A stretch of DNA of 64,000 nucleotides from an uncultured bacterium. GTDB lineage: Bacteria; Omnitrophota; Gorgyraeia; Ghiorseimicrobiales; Ghiorseimicrobiaceae. Below are positions 14,505-62,827 of the stretch, one piece after another. Both the position numbers and the translations under genes were made by a program. Below the pieces are notes generated by a model. That model searched no databases. It had not been told where the DNA came from and saw only the letters and a list, made by a program, of their open reading frames with translations. The stretch lies in the NCBI GenBank assembly GCA_913009335.1, contig CAJVXN010000003.1, forward strand, positions 3,899 to 67,898. The letters are read 5' to 3'. Each line of letters opens with the position of its first letter. Positions within the stretch are counted from its first letter, which is position 1.

Positions 14505-15016
14505 AAGAAAAAATAAATGAAACCACAACTTATGTCGCTGTATTCCATAAGTTGTATGGCTGAATTTACCCCGCCGTTGGCGGGGTTTAATTCGCAGACG
14601 CCCTTTTGGCTTTAACTTATACCGCTTACGCTCCATAAGTCATCTGCTCATTAAAAAACCCATTCGAAAGAATGGGTACAAGTTTAACGGATTCACCAAT
14701 TTAGTGAATACGGCAACCCGACAATCATATCCCTTAATAGCTAAAAGACTTAGACTCGCGGCTTTGTGCCCTATCCTTTCAGATAGTTTACCTTTGCCTT
14801 TAGAGATATTAAATACCTTATATTCTATAATAATACCGTCTAGCCTAAACGCTAGATTATTGAAACTTACTATTACCTCTAAAGAACAATACATATAACT
14901 TACTTATCAAAGAACTCACTTTTCCTATTACAAATATAGCATACAAACTTGCTAATTTCAAGGTCGATAGAGAATAAAAAGTTGTGTTGCATCCGGTTGA
15001 GGCTAAACCTCAACCG

Positions 15017-47955: not shown

Positions 47956-49547
47956 ATAAAAATCACAAAAGTCTTTCGTTATTGCTTACGATAGGAGTTA
48001 CTTGCCTTCTATACAGTCTCGGGACCTCCTATATAGAAAATCATTTTGACAAACTAAGAACCATTGTTTCGTTAGTCGGTTTATTTTCTATTTTGGTTTG
48101 CATTTTTACGTTAAAACAAAAGACGCAAAAATTAATAAAAACTTCTCAATGGAAAAAATATACTTTTATCGTATTTATAGTCGTGCTCTCTTTGTCCCTT
48201 CTTGTGGGAATTAACTACCTATCTTACCGTTACAACTTACGCTGGGATATAACCAAATCCAAACAACACACCCTCTCAGAAAGCACAACCCTATTTATTC
48301 AAGGACTAGAGAAACAGGTTCAAATAACAGCCTTCTATGTTGGGATGCCTCCGAAGTATCTAGAGGACCTGTTTAAAGAATACACTCGACTATCAAACGG
48401 CAAAATCAAAACCGAAATCATCGATCCCATCGTAGAGATCAGCTACGCCGCGCAATTCGGCAGCATTATCAGCGGAAAAGAAAGAAAGGTTATCGTGCTC
48501 TCCGGTGAAGAACGCCAGGATATTGATTTTACCAAACATCCATTAAACGAAGAACACTTAACAAACATCATTATTCAGGTAGCAAGAGATAAACGCGTAA
48601 TCTATTTTCTAACCGGCCATGGAGAATCCGATGTTTTAAATAAAGATGCTAATGGATTAAGCATATTAGTAAAATTATTAGGCACAAACAATGTAGAGAT
48701 AAAAGAACTAATGCTGGGGACAAAAGAAGAAATCCCCGAGGATTGCGATGTTCTTATCGTTGCCGGTGCGAAAAACCCATTGACAGAAACAGAGAAAACA
48801 ATTATCATGGGATATTTAGACAAGGGCGGAGATGCCTTATTTTTAATAGAAAATACGCCTGTTGCTGCATCTGATAAACCCCTGACAGAAGAAGAAAAGC
48901 GTAAGAATCCACCTTTGAATGACATCCTCAACCGATGGGGAATAAAAGTTGCCAATGATCTTGTCGTAGATTTAGACAACCATATAAGCGGAGATGTAGG
49001 TATTCCTGCTACCCGCAATTATATGTTAGGCGCGCCGATTGTTCAGAACCTGGATTATACCTTTTATGTGCGTCCTCGCTCAATCTCAATTTTAGAAAAC
49101 CGGCGTCCGACGATTAAAGTAGCTAGTCTAGTTTCAACCTCTTCAGAAAAAAATAGCTGGGGTGAAACCGACAAAGCTCTGCAGATTAAATTTGATCAAG
49201 GAATAGATAACCCGGGACCGGTTTCAATTGCCTCTATCATTTGGGAGGCAAAACAAAAAATAGAATCACCCGATGCGCTCAGAGGTACACGGATTATTGT
49301 TTTTACCGATGCGGATTTCTTAAGCAATGCTTTTATCGCCCAGTACAGCAATGCTGAAATGGGCCTAAATGTGATTAATTGGCTCTCTGAATTGGATCAG
49401 CGTGTTTTTATTGATCAAAAGGAAATCCGGGTCGATCGGCTTGATTTAACCAGTAAGCAAAAACGCATGATAGCTGTTCTTCTTTTAGTTATGCCTATTA
49501 TTATTGCTACAGGAGGAATAATAACCTGGCTCAAACAAAAAAGCTAA
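47946..49547 (+). CDS. ABC-transport auxiliary component (GldG-like) with N- and C-terminal TM anchors
   Basis: Size, bitopic topology and position in an ATPase-permease-auxiliary triplet match GldG. Confidence 0.45.
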   Translation: MALNKNHKSLSLLLTIGVTCLLYSLGTSYIENHFDKLRTIVSLVGLFSILVCIFTLKQKTQKLIKTSQWKKYTFIVFIVVLSLSLLVGINYLSYRYNLRWDITKSKQHTLSESTTLFIQGLEKQVQITAFYVGMPPKYLEDLFKEYTRLSNGKIKTEIIDPIVEISYAAQFGSIISGKERKVIVLSGEERQDIDFTKHPLNEEHLTNIIIQVARDKRVIYFLTGHGESDVLNKDANGLSILVKLLGTNNVEIKELMLGTKEEIPEDCDVLIVAGAKNPLTETEKTIIMGYLDKGGDALFLIENTPVAASDKPLTEEEKRKNPPLNDILNRWGIKVANDLVVDLDNHISGDVGIPATRNYMLGAPIVQNLDYTFYVRPRSISILENRRPTIKVASLVSTSSEKNSWGETDKALQIKFDQGIDNPGPVSIASIIWEAKQKIESPDALRGTRIIVFTDADFLSNAFIAQYSNAEMGLNVINWLSELDQRVFIDQKEIRVDRLDLTSKQKRMIAVLLLVMPIIIATGGIITWLKQKS

Positions 49548-53369: not shown

Positions 53370-55553
53370 ATGTCTCAATTAATATTTAAAAATTACGGCA
53401 AAAGCTATCAGCTTAGAATTCAAGACGCGCAGGATTTAGAGAACATTCAAGCTCTCGATGAAACGCACTGGGCAGCTACCAGCGTTCCCATTGACAGTCT
53501 CAACTGTGACGCTACTTTTGTTTCTTACGTAGATACTGATAAAAACGGACGTATCAGAACGAATGAAATTAAAGATGCGCAGGCCTGGTTATTTCGATTC
53601 CTCAGCAATCGCAGCCGCCTGTCTGATGGTAGCGATACCTTAAACTTAAACGATATCGATACCACTCATCCTGAAGGTAAAAAATTACGAGACGTAGCAA
53701 AGCTTATCTTAGCTAATCTCAATTCCCCGGATGCCGAAAAAATCAGCTTAGCCCAGATACGCGATGTACAAAGTATTATGGCGAACGCGGCGAATAATGG
53801 CGATGGTATTATTCCCCCGGAGGCTAGCTCTGAGGCTGATTTAGCCGGATTCATCACTTCAGTTATTGAGACTGTTGGTTCTGTGCCCGATGCCAGCGGT
53901 AAAGCAGGAATTAGTCAGGAGCAACTTGAAATATTCTTTAATGAAACTAAAAACTATCTTAGCTGGAAGGCGAAAGGCGAAATCCCTGAAGGAGATAAAT
54001 CCACAGAGGTTATGCCTTGGGGTACTGAGACACCGCAAGCTTATGATTTAATAGCCAGCCTGGAGGAGAAAATCGAACAATACTTTGCGCAATGCGCAAT
54101 GGCTAAATTCGATGAAAGAACGCTGGCTCAGATGCAGCTTCGTCCAAAAGAGCTTGAAGAAATCGATTTTAAAGATAAGTCAGCAATGGAAGCTCGAATC
54201 AAAGATGCCCCATTGGCTGTGCCTAATCCAAAAGGCACATTGGATCTGGATATAGCAATTAATCCCTTATATGCTGAGCGCATATCTGATCTTAAGGAGC
54301 AAGTTTTAAAACGCGCCCTGGGAGGATCAGTTAAACACCTTACCCAAAAACAGTGGGATGAGGTAAAAAATATCTTTGCCCTATACCGAAGCTGGTTAAA
54401 AAACAAACAAGGCGCAAAAGTAGAAAAACTAGACAGAGACAAACTAAATACTTATCTTAACGGCTCCTATAGGAAACAAGTAAGTGAAATTATCGCTAAA
54501 GATCAGGCCGTGGCTAATGATTTAAACCAGATGCAGAATTTGGAAAAGCTAATCCTTTACCAAAAATGGCTGCTGGAATTAGTAAACAATTTTGTGAGTT
54601 TTGCAAATCTTTACAATCCTCAGGTTCGCTCCCTTTTTGAAATGGGCACATTAATAATTGATGGCAGGCAAATTACTTTTACAATGAAGGTCCGGGATAA
54701 AGCAGCGCACAAAAATATAGCAGAAAAAAGTTGTATGTATCTACTCTATGCGGAGATTACCGGCCGCCAGGATAACGATATTAACCCTTCGACTTCGCTC
54801 AGGATTAATGGTGAGCAAGGTCGAACCATTAAATTTGATATTGTGGCTGCGGTAACTTCCGGTAGCGCGGGCGGATTGCGCATTGGAAAACGCGGAATCT
54901 TTTTTAGCGTAGACGGCAAAGAATGGGATGCAAAAATAGTAGATATCGTAGAAAACCCTATTGGCATATGGGAATCGATAAAAGCGCCTTTCGGACAATT
55001 TACAGGCTTCATAAGAAAACAAGTGGATAAATTCACCAAATCCGGCCAGGGCAAATTAGAGAAAAATCTTGCCGCACCTTCCGCATCAGGCACGACTCGC
55101 GATCTCTTACTAGGCGGAGGCATAGCTATTGCGGCTCTTGGCTCATCCTTTGCTTATATCACTAAGGCCCTCTCCCAGGTAAAACCAACTCATATTCTAA
55201 TTGCATTAGCGGGGATAACAACCGCTATTTTATTGCCGGGCATAATTATGGGATTTATCAAGATACGAAAAAGAGATATGAGCGTTCTCCTGGAGGCATC
55301 AGGCTGGGCAATAAATATGCATATGCGTCTAAATTCTACTTTAGGACGGCTTTTTACTCACGTACCGCATCTGCCTAAAGGTGCGCGCAAAGAACGCAAA
55401 GATACAGTAGCGAAGTTTGTAAAAGATTTTGGTTACGCTCCCCTGCGCTCGATGAAATTACCTATAATAACTTTAATTATCTTACTCATTGCGCTTGGTT
55501 TAACACTGATTCGAGTATTCCCTATGTTAAAATTCTTGCCTGGCTGTTTTTGA
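53370..55553 (+). CDS. Hypothetical 727-aa protein with N-terminal EF-hand-like Ca-binding loop and C-terminal TM helices
   Basis: Good RBS (TAAGGAG). DTDKNGRIRTNE matches the 12-residue EF-hand loop consensus D-x-D-x-N-G-x-I-x-x-x-E. Two hydrophobic segments near the C-terminus. No recognisable catalytic family. Confidence 0.5.
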   Translation: MSQLIFKNYGKSYQLRIQDAQDLENIQALDETHWAATSVPIDSLNCDATFVSYVDTDKNGRIRTNEIKDAQAWLFRFLSNRSRLSDGSDTLNLNDIDTTHPEGKKLRDVAKLILANLNSPDAEKISLAQIRDVQSIMANAANNGDGIIPPEASSEADLAGFITSVIETVGSVPDASGKAGISQEQLEIFFNETKNYLSWKAKGEIPEGDKSTEVMPWGTETPQAYDLIASLEEKIEQYFAQCAMAKFDERTLAQMQLRPKELEEIDFKDKSAMEARIKDAPLAVPNPKGTLDLDIAINPLYAERISDLKEQVLKRALGGSVKHLTQKQWDEVKNIFALYRSWLKNKQGAKVEKLDRDKLNTYLNGSYRKQVSEIIAKDQAVANDLNQMQNLEKLILYQKWLLELVNNFVSFANLYNPQVRSLFEMGTLIIDGRQITFTMKVRDKAAHKNIAEKSCMYLLYAEITGRQDNDINPSTSLRINGEQGRTIKFDIVAAVTSGSAGGLRIGKRGIFFSVDGKEWDAKIVDIVENPIGIWESIKAPFGQFTGFIRKQVDKFTKSGQGKLEKNLAAPSASGTTRDLLLGGGIAIAALGSSFAYITKALSQVKPTHILIALAGITTAILLPGIIMGFIKIRKRDMSVLLEASGWAINMHMRLNSTLGRLFTHVPHLPKGARKERKDTVAKFVKDFGYAPLRSMKLPIITLIILLIALGLTLIRVFPMLKFLPGCF

Positions 55554-55566
55554 ATCTAGAGACTTA

Positions 55567-56979
55567 TTAGTTCGAGTCTTGCTTGGGGAGCCATTGGGCA
55601 CGCTTAGCCCTATCCTTAAGGATAGGGCTAATTTTTTGGCTTAAATTTCGAGCAGCGTCCGCCGCCGACCGGACGATGGTCGAGGAAACGGAATTTTCAT
55701 TTTCAAAACTTATTTTGTAATAAAGGGTTAGCGCAATTTCCTCCTTTGAGTATTTAATGCTTTTGATATAGGTTTTTGACCAGAAATTGCGCTCTTCTCC
55801 CCTACATTTTGACATGTTCTTCATGAAAGATTGGAGGGTTTGTGCGAAGATTTCATGTGAAATCTGCGGGGGCTCGAAGGTTTTTTCGAGTCCAGTGCGG
55901 CCACCCATTAGGTACGAATTAAGGCAGAAAATCAAACTTTCAACATATTGCCGATCCTTCGCTATCCGGGAGAGATTTTCAAAGATAATATCTTCTAATT
56001 TTTCCGCGTTTATCTGCCTGACCGAGCAATCCTTCCAGTCCCGCGTAAATGTTTTTGTACAGCGATAGTAATAGTATCGCTTCATTTTTTTATTTTTTCT
56101 CTTTTTATTTGTGAATGTTGGTGTCATTATTGATCCGCAATCTTTACACTTAACCAGTCCTGCCAGAGTATAATGCTTGTAGAGTTTTTCTTTTACGATT
56201 TTTTCCTTATGTCTAGTTTGGGCCAGCTTGAAAGTTTCCTCTGTGATAATTGGCTCATGCAGTGCATCATATAATTTGCCTGCATAACGCATTTTTCCGG
56301 TATAGGCAATATTCCTCAATGCATAAGCAACTGCATGTTTTGAAAAATATTCCCCCTTCCTGCCTCTGATATTGCTTGTTTTTAAATCTCTGTAAACTTT
56401 AAATAAAGAGCCGTGCTGAGTATAAATACCGTAGATGGACCTTACAATCTCTGCCTCTTTTTCTTCTATGACTAATTTTTTCTCGACTCTCTTATACCCT
56501 AATGGTACTACTCCCCCATTCCACATCCCTTTTTGTGCGCGCTGAAGCAGCTTATCTCTGGTTCTCTCACTTGTTAACTCTCTTTCAAATTGCGCAAATG
56601 TGAGCATGATATTGCGCAAAAGCCTTCCGGACGGCGTTGACGTATCAAATCTTTCCGTAACAGATATAAAATCCACTCCGTGTTTTTCAAATAACTCAAT
56701 AAGCTGATAAAAGTCTTTTGGCGATCTGGTCAACCTGTCAATTTTATAAGCCATGACTAGATTTATCTCTCCTTCGTGTATATCCTGGAGCATTTCAGTC
56801 AACGCCGGCCGGTTTACATTTGCGCCGGTAAACCCCGCATCAGAATAAACCTTGTATATCTCCATATCCTCCTGGCTCTCAATGAAGGATTTAATCTTAT
56901 TTTCCTGCGACTCGCATGAATTAAACTCAACCTCTGCTTGCATATCCGTACTCACCCGCGTATATATTGCACACTTCAT
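55567..56979 (-). CDS. Large serine recombinase (resolvase/invertase N-terminal catalytic domain + recombinase domain + zinc ribbon)
   Basis: AIYTRVSTDMQ (catalytic Ser), YKIDRLTRS, recombinase domain, CKDCGS...YYYRCTK zinc ribbon. Confidence 0.8.
   Translation of the reverse strand: MKCAIYTRVSTDMQAEVEFNSCESQENKIKSFIESQEDMEIYKVYSDAGFTGANVNRPALTEMLQDIHEGEINLVMAYKIDRLTRSPKDFYQLIELFEKHGVDFISVTERFDTSTPSGRLLRNIMLTFAQFERELTSERTRDKLLQRAQKGMWNGGVVPLGYKRVEKKLVIEEKEAEIVRSIYGIYTQHGSLFKVYRDLKTSNIRGRKGEYFSKHAVAYALRNIAYTGKMRYAGKLYDALHEPIITEETFKLAQTRHKEKIVKEKLYKHYTLAGLVKCKDCGSIMTPTFTNKKRKNKKMKRYYYYRCTKTFTRDWKDCSVRQINAEKLEDIIFENLSRIAKDRQYVESLIFCLNSYLMGGRTGLEKTFEPPQISHEIFAQTLQSFMKNMSKCRGEERNFWSKTYIKSIKYSKEEIALTLYYKISFENENSVSSTIVRSAADAARNLSQKISPILKDRAKRAQWLPKQDSN
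55606..55662. repeat. Left terminal inverted repeat of the island (contains palindromic hairpin + T-run)
   Basis: Sequence as quoted for the element; lies in the last codons of the recombinase ORF (encodes ...SPILKDRA...). Confidence 0.5.
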
Positions 56980-57176
56980 TTTATCACCTCCATGATTATG
57001 CAGATTATCCCCATAATTAACGCAAAGATTATCCCTAGCTTCAATCGCTCACACTGATACCTAAAATACGGATCCATCATCTTCCTCTCTATATACTATG
57101 ATACTTATAGTCATCATAGATGTCAAGAGAAATGCTACTTATAGTCTCGTAGACAATAAGTAGCAAAAGTGAGATA

Positions 57177-57404
57177 ATGCGCCTTATGAAAGACAAAATA
57201 CTCAAACAATTTGGCGATAAGGTTAAAAAACTAAGAAAAGCTAAAGGCTGGTCTCAAGAGGAGCTGGCTAAAAAGTCCGGCTTACACCGTACCTATATCG
57301 GTAGCATTGAGCGAAGCGAGAGAAATGTCAGCTTAATCAATATTGTAAGAATTGCAAAAGCATTAAGTGCTAGTATTGATAAATTAATAGCAAAAAAGCC
57401 ATAA
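57177..57404 (+). CDS. XRE-family helix-turn-helix transcriptional regulator
   Basis: LRKAKGWSQEELAKKSGLHRTYIGSIERSERNVSLINIVRIAKAL is a canonical HTH_XRE. Confidence 0.7.
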   Translation: MRLMKDKILKQFGDKVKKLRKAKGWSQEELAKKSGLHRTYIGSIERSERNVSLINIVRIAKALSASIDKLIAKKP

Positions 57405-57438
57405 GGATAATAATAACTTTTTATAAAGTGAGGTATGT

Positions 57439-58545
57439 ATGAGTGAAAAAATAAAATTCTCTGATGATGCAGATAAAAATTCTGTAGAAGTAGCAATCCC
57501 TAAAGAACAGCGTATCCTACAAACACAGGCTTACGATAAAAGCGTTAGTGATGTTATCGCCATGCTCAACAGCGGCGACATCATATTAAATCCAGAATAT
57601 CAACGAAACTATGTTTGGAATAATAAAAAAGCATCTCTCTTAATAGAATCCATTCTCTTAAATGTGCCAATCCCAATAATTTATGTATCCGAAGAGGAAG
57701 ATAGTAAATGGAGCGTGGTAGATGGATTACAGCGATTATATTCATTAAAGAGATACTTTAATAACGAATTCAAATTAAATGGGCTTGAGGTATTACAAGA
57801 ATTAAATCGCTCTTCATACCATACATTAAATCCTAAAGCACAGCGGATCCTACGAAGTGGAAATTTGAGAATGATTTTAATTTTCAAGGAATCTAATCCA
57901 GAAATCAAATACGATATTTTCATGAGACTCAATAGGGGATCGATACAGCTCAATGAACAAGAATTAAGAAACTGTTTATATAGAGGAGGATTTAATGAAC
58001 TTTTAAAGAAGATGGCACAAAATGATAATCTATTAGAAATCTTGCGATTGAAAAAACCCCATAGAAGAATGAGAGACGCAGAAATGGTCTTAAGGTACTT
58101 CGCTTTCTCAGATAATTTCAAGCTTGAACAAGAAAAAATGCTAGATTATAAGGGGAGCATGAGAACTTTCTTGAATATATTTATAAAGAGTAAACAAAAA
58201 ATTAACGACACCAGTCTTACTGATTATGAAACAAATTTTAATGAAACAATGCGGAAAACTGTTGCAGTTTTTGGAAATAATGCATTTAGAAGAATAGATG
58301 TTGATGGAAATTATGATAAAGCCGTAAATAGAGCGATAGCAGACTTTATAATGGTAAGTTTTGAAAAATTTGATTACGAACTATTGTCTTCGAAAAAGGA
58401 CTTAATTATAGAGTTATTGAGAGAACTGCCCAGGGAAGATGAAAGATTTCAAGATTCAATAACTATTGGAACTTCGGACACAGCTCGGGTTGAATACCGA
58501 TTAACTACATGGATTAAAAAATTAAATTCTCTACTCCGAACATAA
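57439..58545 (+). CDS. DUF262 (ParB/GmrSD-N-terminal-like) domain protein
   Basis: PEYQRNYVWN and VDGLQRL (DGQQR motif) define the DUF262 ParB-like nuclease/NTPase domain. The C-terminal ~200 aa are helical, with no DUF1524/HNH signature. Confidence 0.7.
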   Translation: MSEKIKFSDDADKNSVEVAIPKEQRILQTQAYDKSVSDVIAMLNSGDIILNPEYQRNYVWNNKKASLLIESILLNVPIPIIYVSEEEDSKWSVVDGLQRLYSLKRYFNNEFKLNGLEVLQELNRSSYHTLNPKAQRILRSGNLRMILIFKESNPEIKYDIFMRLNRGSIQLNEQELRNCLYRGGFNELLKKMAQNDNLLEILRLKKPHRRMRDAEMVLRYFAFSDNFKLEQEKMLDYKGSMRTFLNIFIKSKQKINDTSLTDYETNFNETMRKTVAVFGNNAFRRIDVDGNYDKAVNRAIADFIMVSFEKFDYELLSSKKDLIIELLRELPREDERFQDSITIGTSDTARVEYRLTTWIKKLNSLLRT

Positions 58546-58551
58546 ATAATT

Positions 58552-59238
58552 ATGGCTTTTGATTTTGAATCACTGAAAAGTTTCAATGAAACCCTTGAGG
58601 AAGTTAAAATTCTTATCTCAATATCTGAGAAAAATCAAAGCGAAAATTCGAAATATACCACTTACAATAAGTCTGCCATTTTATTACTCACTGCAAAATT
58701 TGAAAATTACCTTGAAAGTGTTGCACGAGAATACATCGATCTAACTAATAAGCTTTGCATTAAAGCGAATTCCTTACCAAAAAAAATAAAAATACAACAT
58801 ACTCTCCATAAGCTAAAAAACCTGGAAATGTTAAAACAAAGTGACGCAAAAGCACAAAGAGTATTTAATGAATTAGGGCTTTTGTGGAATAGCAACATCC
58901 CTTATGAAACCATCACTCTCGATACTGCGTTTAATTATGGTAAACATGGCTCAAGAGAAATCATTAGGTTTTTCAAAAAAATAGGCTTCGATGATATCTT
59001 TTCAAAAATAAAGGTCTATAAAAAAGTGCGTTCACTTATAATAATTCCAAAAGAGGAAATTGACTTTAAAGCAATCTTTAATTCAGCAATCAATATACGC
59101 AATAATATAATCCATGGTGATGCAACTCCTCAATTAACACATATTGATATTATAAATTACCACGAGCACTTCCGGCAATTTTGTAAAGGTGTCTGCAAAC
59201 TATTAAACCGAAATCTATATATCCTAAGTCGCAGATAA
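58552..59238 (+). CDS. HEPN-domain protein (MAE_28990/MAE_18760-like), probable RNase partner of the DUF262 gene
   Basis: C-terminal IRNNIIHGD carries the Rx4H HEPN motif; helical 228-aa protein; 6-bp gap after the DUF262 gene. Confidence 0.5.
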   Translation: MAFDFESLKSFNETLEEVKILISISEKNQSENSKYTTYNKSAILLLTAKFENYLESVAREYIDLTNKLCIKANSLPKKIKIQHTLHKLKNLEMLKQSDAKAQRVFNELGLLWNSNIPYETITLDTAFNYGKHGSREIIRFFKKIGFDDIFSKIKVYKKVRSLIIIPKEEIDFKAIFNSAINIRNNIIHGDATPQLTHIDIINYHEHFRQFCKGVCKLLNRNLYILSRR

Positions 59239-59381
59239 GAAGATTTCGTAAGATTTGATATATGTATAAATATAAATCGTAACCGCACAAACAAACCCTC
59301 CAATCTTTCAAGGGTTTTAATCAAATAGTTTTGTACAATAAGTCTGGCTTTTTTCGCAAAATGCGATTTATTACGAATCGC

Positions 59382-59573
59382 CTATATATGCCATAATTGG
59401 AATTGTGGATAGGTTTCTCGATCGCCAAAATCTAAATATTTATCATCTTCCCATACAAGCTCGGTAAAATTTTCTAAATCTTCACTATACCCCCGACACA
59501 TAACTTTAAGTCGTACAAACGGATTAAACCGTAGAATGATTTTTGCCAAAATTGGTGGAAAATTAATAGCCAT
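59382..59573 (-). CDS. Hypothetical small protein downstream of DpnI-like gene
   Basis: 63-aa ORF 2 bp after the DpnI-like stop on the same strand; no recognisable motif. Confidence 0.2.
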   Translation of the reverse strand: MAINFPPILAKIILRFNPFVRLKVMCRGYSEDLENFTELVWEDDKYLDFGDRETYPQFQLWHI

Positions 59574-59575
59574 AT

Positions 59576-60343
59576 TTATGTAAGTCGGTAATGACCACGC
59601 GAAACAAAATCAAGATACCCCTTATCCCTTAAAAACTGCAACTGTTGCCGAATTTTATCTTTTATATATTTATTATTTGGATATCTAGCACTTAGTTCAT
59701 TCTCGAAATTATAGATTTCAGATAATAAAAAATCTCTTTTATTTAATCTATCAATGCAATTCATAATATCTAAAATCCACCCTTTCAATTCAGGCTTTTC
59801 CGAATCTTTTAAAAATAAGGTTTTTCTCCAGTTTTCTAAAACATGTTTTCTACTCTCAACCTTCCTGTTTCTTATATAAAATATCCTCCCACTTGAAGGA
59901 ATATTCTGTAACAATATATTACAACCAATCCACCCTGCTCGTCTTGCAGTCTGTGAAAGAGGTTTCCGCTTTTCAATTATTCGGGGGATAAAAAAGTACT
60001 TGGGGATAACAAAGAAATTTACAACTTTAAACCCCTGCAAAGCATAATTAAGTAGAAAGAAATTTGGATTATTGCTATCCTGTAAACGCTCTATCATCGT
60101 ACGATAGGCCCCATCAACTATCTTCTTTCCAATGTTATCTTTTTTACTTTTTAGCTCAAATTCCTCCCGGCAAGATGGGCAATAAAAATCAGCAACGGGT
60201 TTATTGTGAGCATAAGATTTTACATCATGTCCACATCCAGGACAAAATATTTGAGATTTAACCCAACTCTCTGTTAATACACGAATCTTCTGTGAAGCAC
60301 TCTTGTATCGTTTTGCTAAATATGCATCAAAATATGTTCGCAT
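59576..60343 (-). CDS. DpnI-like methyl-directed (Type IIM/IV) restriction endonuclease: PD-(D/E)XK catalytic domain + C-terminal winged helix
   Basis: 255 aa, matching DpnI length. SQKIRVLTESW, CPGCG, VADFYCPSCREEFELKSKK (D...ExK), TARRAGWIGCNILL and KIRQQLQFLRDKGYLDF blocks match my memory of DpnI. Confidence 0.5.
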   Translation of the reverse strand: MRTYFDAYLAKRYKSASQKIRVLTESWVKSQIFCPGCGHDVKSYAHNKPVADFYCPSCREEFELKSKKDNIGKKIVDGAYRTMIERLQDSNNPNFFLLNYALQGFKVVNFFVIPKYFFIPRIIEKRKPLSQTARRAGWIGCNILLQNIPSSGRIFYIRNRKVESRKHVLENWRKTLFLKDSEKPELKGWILDIMNCIDRLNKRDFLLSEIYNFENELSARYPNNKYIKDKIRQQLQFLRDKGYLDFVSRGHYRLT

Positions 60344-60382
60344 GCGCCTTTATTTTTTTACTACACCACGAACCATAAAAAA

Positions 60383-60450
60383 CCCTCCGCCATTTATAGC
60401 GAAGGTTTTACTTTTTTAACGTCCGGGAATTCCCCCTTCAAACGCGGGAC
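60383..60450 (+). repeat. 68-bp direct repeat unit (copy 1) with terminator-like hairpin + T-run and GGGAATTCCC palindrome
   Basis: CCTCCGCCATTTATAGCGAAGGTTTTACTTTTTTAACGTCCGGGAATTCCCCCTTCAAACGCGGGAC; second full copy at 60788-60855, partial copy at 60717-60757. Confidence 0.5.
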
Positions 60451-60787
60451 GATTAACTCCTGATTAATTTTAATATAGCCTTAATTTAAGCATCTGTCAA
60501 GATTTTTAACAATAAGAGTCGACTCTCTATCTACACCTAATCCTGAAATCCAAATTCGAGCTGCCTTTCGTTTCGAGCTCTATGAAAGGCAACACGTTTA
60601 CAACTCAAGACTGCATTACGGTACAAAAATCCAGGCAGCCAGGTTAATGCTTTTATAATTCCTTGCATGACAACCCCCTCTCCTTAAAAGTCCTTCTCCG
60701 GTATAATCCCATCAATGAAGGTTTTACTTTTTTAGAGTGGAGGTTCCCCCTTCAACTCACCACTATTATAGCCCCTAAAAACAAAAA

Positions 60788-60855
60788 TCCTTCGCCATTT
60801 TTAGCGAAGGTTTTACTTTTTTAACGTCCGGGATTTCCCCCTTCTAACGCGGGAC
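60788..60855 (+). repeat. 68-bp direct repeat unit (copy 2)
   Basis: CCTTCGCCATTTTTAGCGAAGGTTTTACTTTTTTAACGTCCGGGATTTCCCCCTTCTAACGCGGGAC. Confidence 0.5.
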
Positions 60856-61061
60856 TTACCTAATTGTTAAATATTAATATAGCTCTGTTTTACCAATTTG
60901 TCAAGGCAATTTTAGTAAAAACTACCTCCTCCTATTCTCCTTGTTTTATTACAGGGAGAGGAAACATCTTGTACGCATTAGCATTTCTGTAAGAGAAATC
61001 AGGAAGAGTTAATTTATCTCCAAGATTCTTAAAGGGAAAATTTTAAAGAGTGTTTTCGTCT

Positions 61062-61940
61062 TCATTTCATATTTAAGCGTTTCATCGCCCATAGGCCCAA
61101 CTTTTCACAATATGCATCAATAGAGTGGTTCTTTACGCCTTCTTTTTTGTTTTTTAAAAAGCCTACCAATCGGAAAAATTCATTATAATTCTTGATAACT
61201 TTTACCCTGGTAAAACCGTCATTATATGGTGTCAAATATCGCATATCTCCATGGTGATCATAGCCAATGAATTTCTTGATAAAATTGCGAAGTTTTTTAC
61301 ATGGCAATAAACATAATAACTCAAAGATATATGTTGGCGGGCTAAATGGAACAATATCATGAGCGTTAACAATTCGGTAAATCGGTGCTTTTATGTCATC
61401 ATCAAATTCTTCATTTCCTACCTTAGGGCTACCAAACGTATAACAGGCCGCTAAATTATCATAATTTAACGCACGCGTAGCAATTAAAGCTAAAGCCCCT
61501 CCAAGCGAATGACCAGTTACATAAAGCGAAAAATCCTTGACGATATCAACCGCACTGCGAATATCATCTTCAACACATTTAAACGCTTGATAAAAACCAT
61601 TATGAACTTTTGCTCCGTTTTTATCCTGATAAAAATTTGCTTTCAAATCTGTAACAATATCTTTAATTTCTTTTATTTGTGTTCCTCTAAATGCAAGTAT
61701 TGCCATTTTATCACTATCTCTTTTCACCAAAAAAGCCTGCGTTGCATCGCGATTAAAAGTCTGAACGAGTTCAAAGTTAGCTTGAGATAGAGCTTCTTTT
61801 AACTCATTGCTATTTTTTTCAAATATCAAATAAGCTAGCTGAGACATTACCGCCATCAACCACGCTGTTCGATCACTATACGCTGCCCTTCTTATAGGTG
61901 GCGATAATAAATCTTTATGTGGAAAGTATAATTTACTCAT
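61062..61940 (-). CDS. Class 3 lipase (alpha/beta-hydrolase, Lipase_3 family)
   Basis: GHSLGGALA nucleophile elbow preceded by the FRGTQ motif typical of lipase_3. Confidence 0.65.
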   Translation of the reverse strand: MSKLYFPHKDLLSPPIRRAAYSDRTAWLMAVMSQLAYLIFEKNSNELKEALSQANFELVQTFNRDATQAFLVKRDSDKMAILAFRGTQIKEIKDIVTDLKANFYQDKNGAKVHNGFYQAFKCVEDDIRSAVDIVKDFSLYVTGHSLGGALALIATRALNYDNLAACYTFGSPKVGNEEFDDDIKAPIYRIVNAHDIVPFSPPTYIFELLCLLPCKKLRNFIKKFIGYDHHGDMRYLTPYNDGFTRVKVIKNYNEFFRLVGFLKNKKEGVKNHSIDAYCEKLGLWAMKRLNMK

Positions 61941-62253
61941 CTCCCCCCCCTCCTATAACACTTTTTGAAAAATTAATCTTCTATAAACCAAGTTGCTTAA
62001 TCATTATACTGCTCGTGAATAATATCTGTCAATAGAAGTTAGGGAAAGCGGATTCGGAGCGCAAGAAACGGAAGACAGCGAAGCTGGCTGACGCCGAGCA
62101 CTGAAACCGCTCGGGTGGGTGAGGAATATAGGTTTTTGGCCGCACAAACAAACCCTCCAATCTTTCATATAGAATCTTCCTTATAATTCTGAAAATTAAA
62201 ATTCCGTTTTCTCGAGCAGCGGACGGTCGCACTCAAGAGTAGGCTTCGCACGC

Positions 62254-62310
62254 GCGGACGCTGCTCGAAATTTTAGCCAAAAAACTAGCCCTATCCTTAA
62301 GGATAGGGCT
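62254..62310. repeat. Right terminal inverted repeat of the island
   Basis: GCGGACGCTGCTCGAAATTTTAGCCAAAAAACTAGCCCTATCCTTAAGGATAGGGCT. Confidence 0.5.
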
Positions 62311-62827
62311 GACCATAAAGAATGCCTCCCCAGAAACTCCCAAGATCAAACTATTGAGATAATTCTATCCAACTCAATACACGGCTGTAGGAATAATCTT
62401 TAGGCCCCGCCGCCCGTACATTCGTCGTTTTACTCCTCAGTATTTCCTTCGGTCACTGGGCGGGCTCGTTTATCTCCCGTTTCGTGGCTTTAAAATCAAC
62501 CAGATAGGTTGATTGAGCGGCATTTTCAAATTTCACAAGAATAGTGAAATTTGTGCCGCAAAACACCAATCAAGGCGCAAAAAAATATGGCGGCTGGGGT
62601 GCACTCAAGAGTAGGCTTCGCACCGGGACAGCCGCCATTTAAATTATCAATAACTACTTCGTCTATTATCTCAAGCTGGTTAGTTCCACTAGATTATGCA
62701 CAAACACCTTAACAACAGACTGAGCATAATAACCGGGGTTTTAGCAATATCCGCATCTTTTTTTATTCTGCGGCAGACTTCCTCATTTCAAAATCTGCTG
62801 ATTTCCTATAGTTTACTAAAATAATTA

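Follow-up and report, generated by a model that had tools for sequence, protein, structure and literature searches.

A PD-T4-2-type DUF262-HEPN gene pair downstream of a controller-protein gene in an uncultured Omnitrophota bacterium

The pairing of a ParB-like DUF262 protein with a HEPN protein is not new: it was catalogued in 2013 (PMC3710099), and one instance acts against phage T4 by experiment (PD-T4-2, PMC9519451). Table 1 of Anantharaman et al. 2013 lists a "Ribo L-PSP-HEPN" family in an "operon with ParB", with Rx4H conserved (PMC3710099). PD-T4-2 ("DUF262, HEPN"), from E. coli ECOR65 (Vassallo et al. 2022), protects against T4 natively and in K-12; its authors' HHpred analysis equated PD-T4-2A with PF03235 (99.7%) and PD-T4-2B with PF18735 (97.8%), then PF18737 (96.9%) (PMC9519451). 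No mechanistic study of PD-T4-2 was found in the searchable literature. Reviews and surveys place PD-T4-2 among several DUF262-centred systems (PMC10952713, PMC12065111). In GmrSD, BrxU and SspE, according to the literature, DUF262 is a sensor of modified DNA in which turnover of nucleoside triphosphate (NTP) gates the nuclease, DUF1524. Here we describe a DUF262-HEPN gene pair at positions 57439-59238 of a 64,000-nucleotide stretch (the window) of contig CAJVXN010000003.1 from an uncultured Omnitrophota bacterium (GCA_913009335.1).

The pair is a module of the PD-T4-2 type, a kind catalogued since 2013, and represents a divergent, previously unhighlighted clade. It probably forms a three-gene operon with the gene of a controller (C) protein, in the order C-DUF262-HEPN, with the two-gene anti-phage module as its core and a mechanism as proposed below.

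The DUF262 and HEPN proteins

The DUF262 gene (57439..58545, + strand, 368 amino acids [aa]) is followed after 6 bp by the HEPN gene (58552..59238, + strand, 228 aa). The DUF262 protein matches GmrSD_N/PF03235 in Pfam (E 1.8e-26, 93.9 bits, cutoff 33.2) and no other domain. Searches of Pfam and NCBIfam detected no nuclease domain in it and no DUF1524 in either protein of the pair; NCBIfam has no model for either of them. A homologue search gave 1305 matches, the best 120 of which are full length at 52-66% identity. The translation contains NPEYQRNYVW (residues 51-60) and VVDGLQRL (93-100). Three DUF262 motifs have been defined for NsnA and GmrSD (PMC12065111), and all of them, QRxxxW (Q55, R56, W60), DGxQR (D95-R99) and FxxxN (F161, N165), are invariant across 32 DUF262 homologues.

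Employing PADLOC models, we obtained matches of the DUF262 protein to NsnA of Menshen (1.2e-89, 299 bits, full length) and to PD-T4-2_A (2.9e-47, 159 bits, a score not calibrated by a bona fide PD-T4-2_A). Residues 34-360 align to positions 38-359 of the 363 in the PD-T4-2_A model, i.e. end to end. The AlphaFold 2 model (mean predicted local distance difference test 81.6) has BrxU, CTP-bound ParB and SspE as its best matches in the PDB. The C-terminal half is helical and aligns with the PADLOC NsnA model in the C-terminal part of the latter; Li et al. named this region of NsnA the ParBDB DNA-binding domain (PMC12065111). This is a ParB-DUF262 protein with all nucleotide-pocket motifs intact and no nuclease domain. 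Consisting of an N-terminal NTPase domain and a helical C-terminal domain, it presumably serves as sensor or regulator.

The HEPN protein matches HEPN_RiboL-PSP/PF18735 (E 1.8e-19, 70.8 bits, cutoff 28.4) and, more weakly, HEPN_MAE_28990/PF18737 (2.9e-8). Its predicted structure is an all-alpha HEPN fold, with HepN/HEPN-MNT toxins as the closest folds; the family profile had no match among PDB sequences, and solved HEPNs are linked to it through fold comparison only. A word-indexed protein search with the HEPN query returned one non-self relative, and an exhaustive HMMER search returned 364 representatives. The translation carries IRNNIIHGD (182-190), in which R183-N-N-I-I-H188 is the R-x4-H motif. 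R183 and H188 are the sole invariant columns among 109 cluster representatives of the family. In the 44 syntenic partners described in the next section, all of which match PF18735, E17, E51, H132, G133, R183, N184 and H188 are invariant at a mean column identity of 32%. An R-x4-H string by itself is weak evidence; the HEPN assignment goes beyond chance because profile, fold and conservation agree. The protein is a HEPN by fold, its R-x4-H dyad is invariant, and it is predicted to act as an RNase effector.

These results bear out much of the first-pass annotation of this DNA, which was based on the letters and the translated open reading frames (ORFs). The ORF positions, the 6-bp spacing and the motifs PEYQRNYVW, DGLQR and R-N-N-I-I-H given there agree with the translations, and the first protein is, as proposed, ParB-like/DUF262 without DUF1524. 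For the second protein, profile hidden Markov model (HMM) searches gave a HEPN family, as proposed there, with R183 and H188 invariant, and not a non-HEPN family with unconserved R and H.

With two such proteins, the nuclease of the module might lie elsewhere than in HEPN. ParB-like domains were once annotated as nucleases ("ParB DNase", Anantharaman 2013, PMC3710099), the characterised DUF262 systems GmrSD, BrxU and SspE all act on DNA, and the neighbouring DpnI is a modification-dependent DNase. These points favour a type IV-like system. Modified phage DNA would then be cut by the ParB-like domain or by a nuclease that escaped recognition, and HEPN would be a regulatory subunit binding nucleotides or nucleic acids. 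We consider such a system improbable. HEPN is the sole detectable nuclease domain, the characterised relatives use DUF262 as NTPase and sensor and DUF1524 as nuclease, and the absolutely conserved R and H constitute an RNase dyad, which argues for a catalytic HEPN.

Synteny, co-evolution and distribution of the pair

A genome scan with the DUF262 alignment yielded 80 loci, 49 of which are close relatives (43-66% identity) with downstream sequence available. Directly downstream, 44 of the 49 have an intact HEPN homologue of 209-252 aa, at gaps of -31 to +14 bp. Among the other five, three have both genes frameshifted (L041, L050 and L053), one is without HEPN (L046), and one, from an Ignavibacteriota metagenome-assembled genome (MAG), has a longer HEPN fusion (L012, 9068-10246). 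The partner in the latter is 393 aa long, with an additional 163-aa C-terminal extension that has no Pfam match. HEPN is therefore found downstream in 48 of the 49, and NsnB in none.

For the reciprocal test, HEPN matches were picked across the E-value range irrespective of DUF262; each of the five is directly preceded by a DUF262 gene, and the nearest HEPN homologue (P0002) has a GmrSD_N gene upstream. The distance matrices of the two proteins are strongly correlated (Mantel r = 0.87, 0/2000 permutations), with HEPN evolving faster (mean pairwise identity 29%, against 50% for DUF262). A third conserved gene was sought among 80 flanking proteins, and no Pfam family was present in more than 2 of them. 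From this lack of a third gene, the adjacency and the correlated distances, we conclude that DUF262 and HEPN make up a module of two genes that is self-contained and co-evolves.

At 27 loci of the scan, DUF262 relatives of lower identity (26-33%) have an NsnB ABC-ATPase gene next downstream (five intact partners scanned, E ~1e-100). On the NsnA model, the DUF262 proteins of these loci reach 478-495 bits, a group of their own by score, and the loci are true Menshen. Members of the HEPN-linked clade reach 290-316 bits there and 146-200 bits on PD-T4-2_A. Plasmid and phage DUF262 matches were also checked for a bona fide PD-T4-2, and none exceeded ~200 bits on PD-T4-2_A. Because NsnB and NsnC are missing and the PADLOC scores are as given, the clade of the window is neither Menshen nor a close copy of E. 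coli PD-T4-2. The analysis shows a large coherent DUF262-HEPN clade placed between Menshen NsnA and PD-T4-2_A.

NsnA being the best PADLOC match (1.2e-89), the locus could be thought of as a degenerate Menshen that lost NsnB and NsnC. Such an origin is effectively excluded: NsnB-linked NsnA proteins score ~480 bits, against ~300 for the window clade, and close relatives are accompanied by HEPN at 48 of 49 loci and by NsnB at none, and the pairing is ancient and under selection.

Bacteria bearing the pair include Bacteroidota, Bacillota, Cyanobacteriota, Planctomycetota, Nitrospirota, Pseudomonadota and others. Two short contigs (L019 and L020), assigned to one MAG each of Promethearchaeota and Woesearchaeota from the same study, carry what looks like one and the same pair, with identical gene lengths and HMM scores; their archaeal binning may be an artefact. 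Some pairs adjoin restriction-modification (R-M) genes or integrases. The nearest homologue is directly preceded by a PAPS_reduct (DndC-like) gene (L001, 1139-1933), two Dam-like MethyltransfD12 genes lie downstream of the pair in L097/L098 (L097, 4039-5995), and the methyl-GATC-dependent DpnI (59576-60343) adjoins the pair in the window. DNA-modification genes beside some pairs could be a sign of a sensor that reads DNA modification, the cases being too few to say.

Related pairs were also seen on mobile elements. The 3.9-kb E. coli plasmid pLR-27_3 (L086, 52-1755) encodes DUF262 and a 191-aa PF18735 HEPN, the P2-like phage P2_4B2 (L087, 140-2015) encodes DUF262 and a PF18737 HEPN, and a Bradyrhizobium plasmid has a related DUF262-HEPN pair beside an N6 methylase. 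The second gene is annotated "HEPN domain-containing protein" on the E. coli and Bradyrhizobium plasmids and "hypothetical protein" in P2_4B2. The HEPNs of pLR-27_3 and P2_4B2 were not detected by a profile of the window HEPN clade. The occurrence of different HEPN subfamilies with DUF262 suggests repeated exchange of HEPN on a DUF262 scaffold. In plasmid pAB1 of A. baumannii ATCC 17978 (L085, 2917-4557), a DUF262 gene is followed by an unannotated 167-aa ORF, a truncated homologue of the window HEPN family without the R-x4-H region and probably a decayed copy.

Tight coupling and co-evolution of the genes, their location in a recombinase-bearing island here and on a 3.9-kb plasmid carrying little else, and the joint decay of both genes in degenerate copies (L050 and L053) could also mark a toxin-antitoxin or addiction module. 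HEPN would then be the toxin and DUF262 the antitoxin, mainly stabilising the mobile island with no dedicated phage sensing; HEPN toxins are common in toxin-antitoxin systems, and the closest folds of the window protein are such toxins. We judge this unlikely as the main role of the pair. A 368-aa NTPase with a C-terminal domain of DNA-binding type and invariant nucleotide-pocket motifs is too elaborate for a mere antitoxin, and PD-T4-2, of homologous architecture, protects against phage; besides, addiction and defence are mutually compatible roles.

The controller protein and the surrounding island

Upstream of the DUF262 gene, with a gap of 34 bp, lies a gene (57177..57404, + strand) for a 75-aa helix-turn-helix protein. 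It matches HTH_3 in Pfam (2.4e-17) and Control_protein in PADLOC (1.2e-23), its best PDB sequence matches are C.BclI (3.8e-16), C.AhdI (2.2e-15) and C.Esp1396I (6.7e-10), and its translation contains the HRTY motif of the recognition helix. These matches place the protein in the R-M controller-protein family. It resembles these C.PvuII-type controllers in sequence and in the HRTY helix, and a pair of candidate C-box-like dyads lies 5' of its own gene.

The candidate operator cluster spans 57102..57162. The C-box consensus is GACT-N3-AGTC-N4-GACT-N3-AGTC (PMC2175313). The palindrome TACT-TAT-AGTC-tcgt-AGAC-AAT-AAGT at 57136-57162 resembles it, and a further site, TACTTATAGTC, lies at 57102-57112. 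The first box of the palindrome fits this consensus well (wild-type PvuII likewise has TACT as its half-box 1A). The second box fits only at a one-base offset and with degenerate half-boxes, GACA-ATA-AGTA (TACT-TAT-AGTC-tcgta-GACA-ATA-AGTA). A promoter-like TAGACA-17-GATAAT at 57150-57178 overlaps the second box, with its -35-like hexamer at the overlap. In the 64-kb window, three C-box-like sites are clustered upstream of the C-protein gene, with the sole other, a match with one mismatch, at 48172; none is found upstream of DpnI.

No terminator-like site was found on the + strand between 57404 and 59354, and C, DUF262 and HEPN may therefore be carried on a single transcript. The 3' end of the operon would lie at 59291..59366, where a hairpin (AAACCCT..AGGGTTT(T)) is followed by a terminator-like site (59354-59366); no + strand gene lies 3' of the HEPN gene, the next genes being convergent. 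Most simply, the locus is read as a C-DUF262-HEPN operon that is controlled by a C-type switch. All characterised C proteins belong to R-M systems, and a C gene normally shares its transcript with the gene right after it (PMC2175313). C.PvuII-type controllers have a restriction endonuclease gene downstream, whereas in the window DUF262-HEPN is downstream and the island has no methyltransferase (none in 55.5-62.3 kb by the ORF list and Pfam). A C protein in front of non-R-M genes is unusual and specific to the window locus.

That all characterised C proteins serve R-M systems, that tblastn found no C-protein homologue at the other 44 loci and that a restriction endonuclease gene lies 2 kb off are consistent with a C protein that controls a restriction system, either a lost R-M system or, in trans, DpnI. 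It would then owe its position to the way the island was assembled, and the pair would be expressed constitutively. The layout of the locus makes this very doubtful: the C-box sites occur directly 5' of the C gene and not upstream of DpnI, C genes are usually co-transcribed with the next gene downstream, the short gap to DUF262 has no terminator-like site, and DpnI is convergent.

The mobility gene of the island is that of a large serine recombinase (55567..56979, - strand; Pfam Resolvase 4.1e-39, Recombinase 1.3e-15, Zn_ribbon_recom 4.4e-14), divergent from the C gene. Convergent with the pair is a gene for a DpnI-family methyl-directed restriction endonuclease (59576..60343, - strand; Pfam DpnI 8.5e-79, DpnI_C 6.2e-32; PADLOC mREase_II 2.4e-114), which is the second defence gene of the island. 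A class 3 lipase gene (Lipase_3, 5.3e-29; 61062-61940, - strand) follows, an odd neighbour for defence genes. Among the six genes scanned by Pfam between 55567 and 61940, none encodes a nucleotidyltransferase domain as in HEPN-MNT antitoxins. GC content falls to 0.31-0.34 over 57-60 kb, against ~0.38 window-wide.

These six genes (recombinase, C protein, DUF262, HEPN, DpnI and Lipase_3) lie in a segment of ~6.7 kb (55584-62332) flanked by an imperfect inverted repeat of ~130-250 nucleotides (nt), with blocks of 79 nt at 87%, 43 nt at 84% and 27 nt at 93% identity. The left arm (55584..55843) and the final ~50 codons of the recombinase ORF overlap; each arm, including the right one at 62148..62332, has the perfect palindrome TTAGCCCTATCCTTAAGGATAGGGCTAA followed by six T. 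The left-arm palindrome is the terminator of a 727-aa ORF (53370-55553, + strand) directly left of the island, which has no match in Pfam or NCBIfam and whose stop codon is 13 bp from that of the recombinase gene. The inverted repeats may mark the ends of the island or sites of recombination, or they may be duplicated terminators. On the metagenome contig L088 (VAPA010069853.1), positions 2-147 contain the ~150-nt boundary element at 84-88% identity to that of the window. A gene for DarT, a single-stranded-DNA ADP-ribosyltransferase toxin, lies ~200 nt downstream of it (347-934), where the window has the lipase gene, which hints at variable cargo beside the boundary element.

A 20-mer, TGAAAGATTGGAGGGTTTGT, has three perfect copies in the window, with 0 expected: 55824-55843 (+), inside the recombinase coding sequence; 59291-59310 (-), on the hairpin just 3' of the HEPN stop codon; and 62148-62167 (-). 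A chance pair was rejected on these counts. The second and third copies have 29 nt in common and are direct repeats 2857 bp apart around DpnI and the lipase gene. Six metagenome contigs contain the 20-mer, with unrelated flanks in five of the six. Rfam has no family for the repeated elements. The 720-bp gap between the DpnI and lipase genes also contains a 73-nt direct repeat (60378-60450 and 60783-60855, 93% identical; partial copy at 60717-60755), each copy with the hairpin CCTCCGCCATTTATAGCGAAGG and with no other copy in the window.

Elsewhere in the window, all 25 ORFs of at least 250 aa in positions 1-45000 are on the minus strand and GC skew is negative throughout, which indicates a long block of co-oriented genes. 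A c-di-GMP-I riboswitch at 14709-14802 (- strand; RF01051, 72 bits, E 3.5e-12) is the sole Rfam family match in the window.

Proposed mechanism and comparison with known systems

The role of DUF262 as a sensor or regulator gating the HEPN RNase is proposed by analogy with GmrSD, BrxU and SspE. The two proteins would form a complex in which the DUF262 subunit keeps the HEPN RNase inactive. Upon infection, DUF262 would recognise the phage DNA by some feature; a modified base or backbone is one possibility, as with GmrSD, BrxU and SspE. It would then bind or hydrolyse NTP, and the resulting shift in conformation would let the HEPN subunits form an active RNase. This enzyme would cut host and/or phage RNA (tRNA, mRNA or rRNA), halting translation and phage production, probably with growth arrest or abortive infection as the outcome. 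When and how strongly the operon is expressed is probably set by the C.PvuII-type controller, which has candidate C-boxes of its own, as for restriction endonuclease genes, and the module would be carried in a small island together with the serine recombinase and the DpnI-like enzyme.

Several points weigh against this proposal. The C protein, being without a homologue at the other 44 loci, is not part of the conserved system; we infer its regulatory link to the pair from position and the C-boxes, and the RNase activity, target, trigger and complex of this clade from related systems. Homology to PD-T4-2 is distant, at 159 bits on PD-T4-2_A versus 299 on NsnA. The HEPN protein matches no PADLOC model at E<=1, PD-T4-2_B included, and the PD-T4-2_B model is matched by 1 of the 44 syntenic partners (E = 0.0048). 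A tblastn search of plasmid and phage collections with the HEPN protein gave no match, although family members do turn up there by HMM. Many pairs are located among housekeeping genes and not in obvious defence islands.

Taking clade, regulator and island ends together, one can form a broader picture, which we offer tentatively and regard as possible more than probable. An NsnA-type sensor would be wired directly to a ~230-aa RiboL-PSP HEPN RNase without an ATPase transducer, a mechanistically distinct lineage widespread in Bacteria. An R-M controller with its C-boxes would have been co-opted to time an RNA-targeting abortive-infection module, and the inverted-repeat ends would be a site for swapping defence cargo, with DarT beside the same element in a relative. 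If true, this would be the first C-protein switch outside restriction-modification, and the arrangement of C protein and C-boxes suggests a way to establish a toxic RNase module safely after horizontal transfer. As the HEPN half of the clade matches no PADLOC v2 model, the clade may escape defence-system surveys. The contrast of HEPN-linked with NsnB-linked relatives amounts to a natural experiment, with one sensor scaffold and swapped effectors.

The window HEPN and the Ribo L-PSP-HEPN entry of 2013 (PMC3710099) have their Pfam family in common; the L-PSP endoRNase fusion that gave the entry its name is not present in the window protein, and that paper contains no functional test. With PD-T4-2, the locus shares a two-gene operon in which gene A encodes DUF262/PF03235 without DUF1524 and a HEPN gene B follows directly downstream. 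Compared via the published HHpred table, PD-T4-2B and the window HEPN have PF18735 as best and PF18737 as second match, in the same order. PD-T4-2B seems shorter, as its HHpred match ends at ~residue 163 and both ORFs span 1540 bp, whereas the window HEPN has 228 aa; the C protein is additional to the PD-T4-2 architecture.

In Menshen (NsnABC; Millman 2022; Li et al. 2025, PMC12065111), NsnA is close in architecture to the window DUF262 protein, ParB-DUF262 with a helical C-terminal domain, and the proposed logic is alike: in both, a DUF262 sensor would act upstream of an effector that is a toxic nuclease. The NsnB ABC-ATPase transducer and the NsnC inPIN-nuclease effector are missing from the locus, where the HEPN gene takes the position of NsnB.

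GmrSD, BrxU and SspE have in common with the window protein an N-terminal ParB-like DUF262 domain with the DGxQR nucleotide pocket, and BrxU and SspE are among its best structural matches. In these three, which are type IV or phosphorothioate (PT)-dependent enzymes, a DUF1524 His-Me DNase is fused to DUF262, whereas the window has a separate HEPN protein, predicted to be an RNase. The first-pass annotation had called the pair a split analogue of GmrSD-type systems with an RNase effector, set in a mobile context beside a methyl-directed restriction endonuclease. The context is confirmed by the large serine recombinase and the DpnI-family enzyme, and homologous pairs are syntenic elsewhere; the split-analogue idea matches the literature view of PD-T4-2 and Menshen (PMC10952713, PMC12065111) as regards architecture, its mechanism being conjectural both here and there. 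The locus extends a known family and leaves the current understanding of DUF262-centred systems in place.

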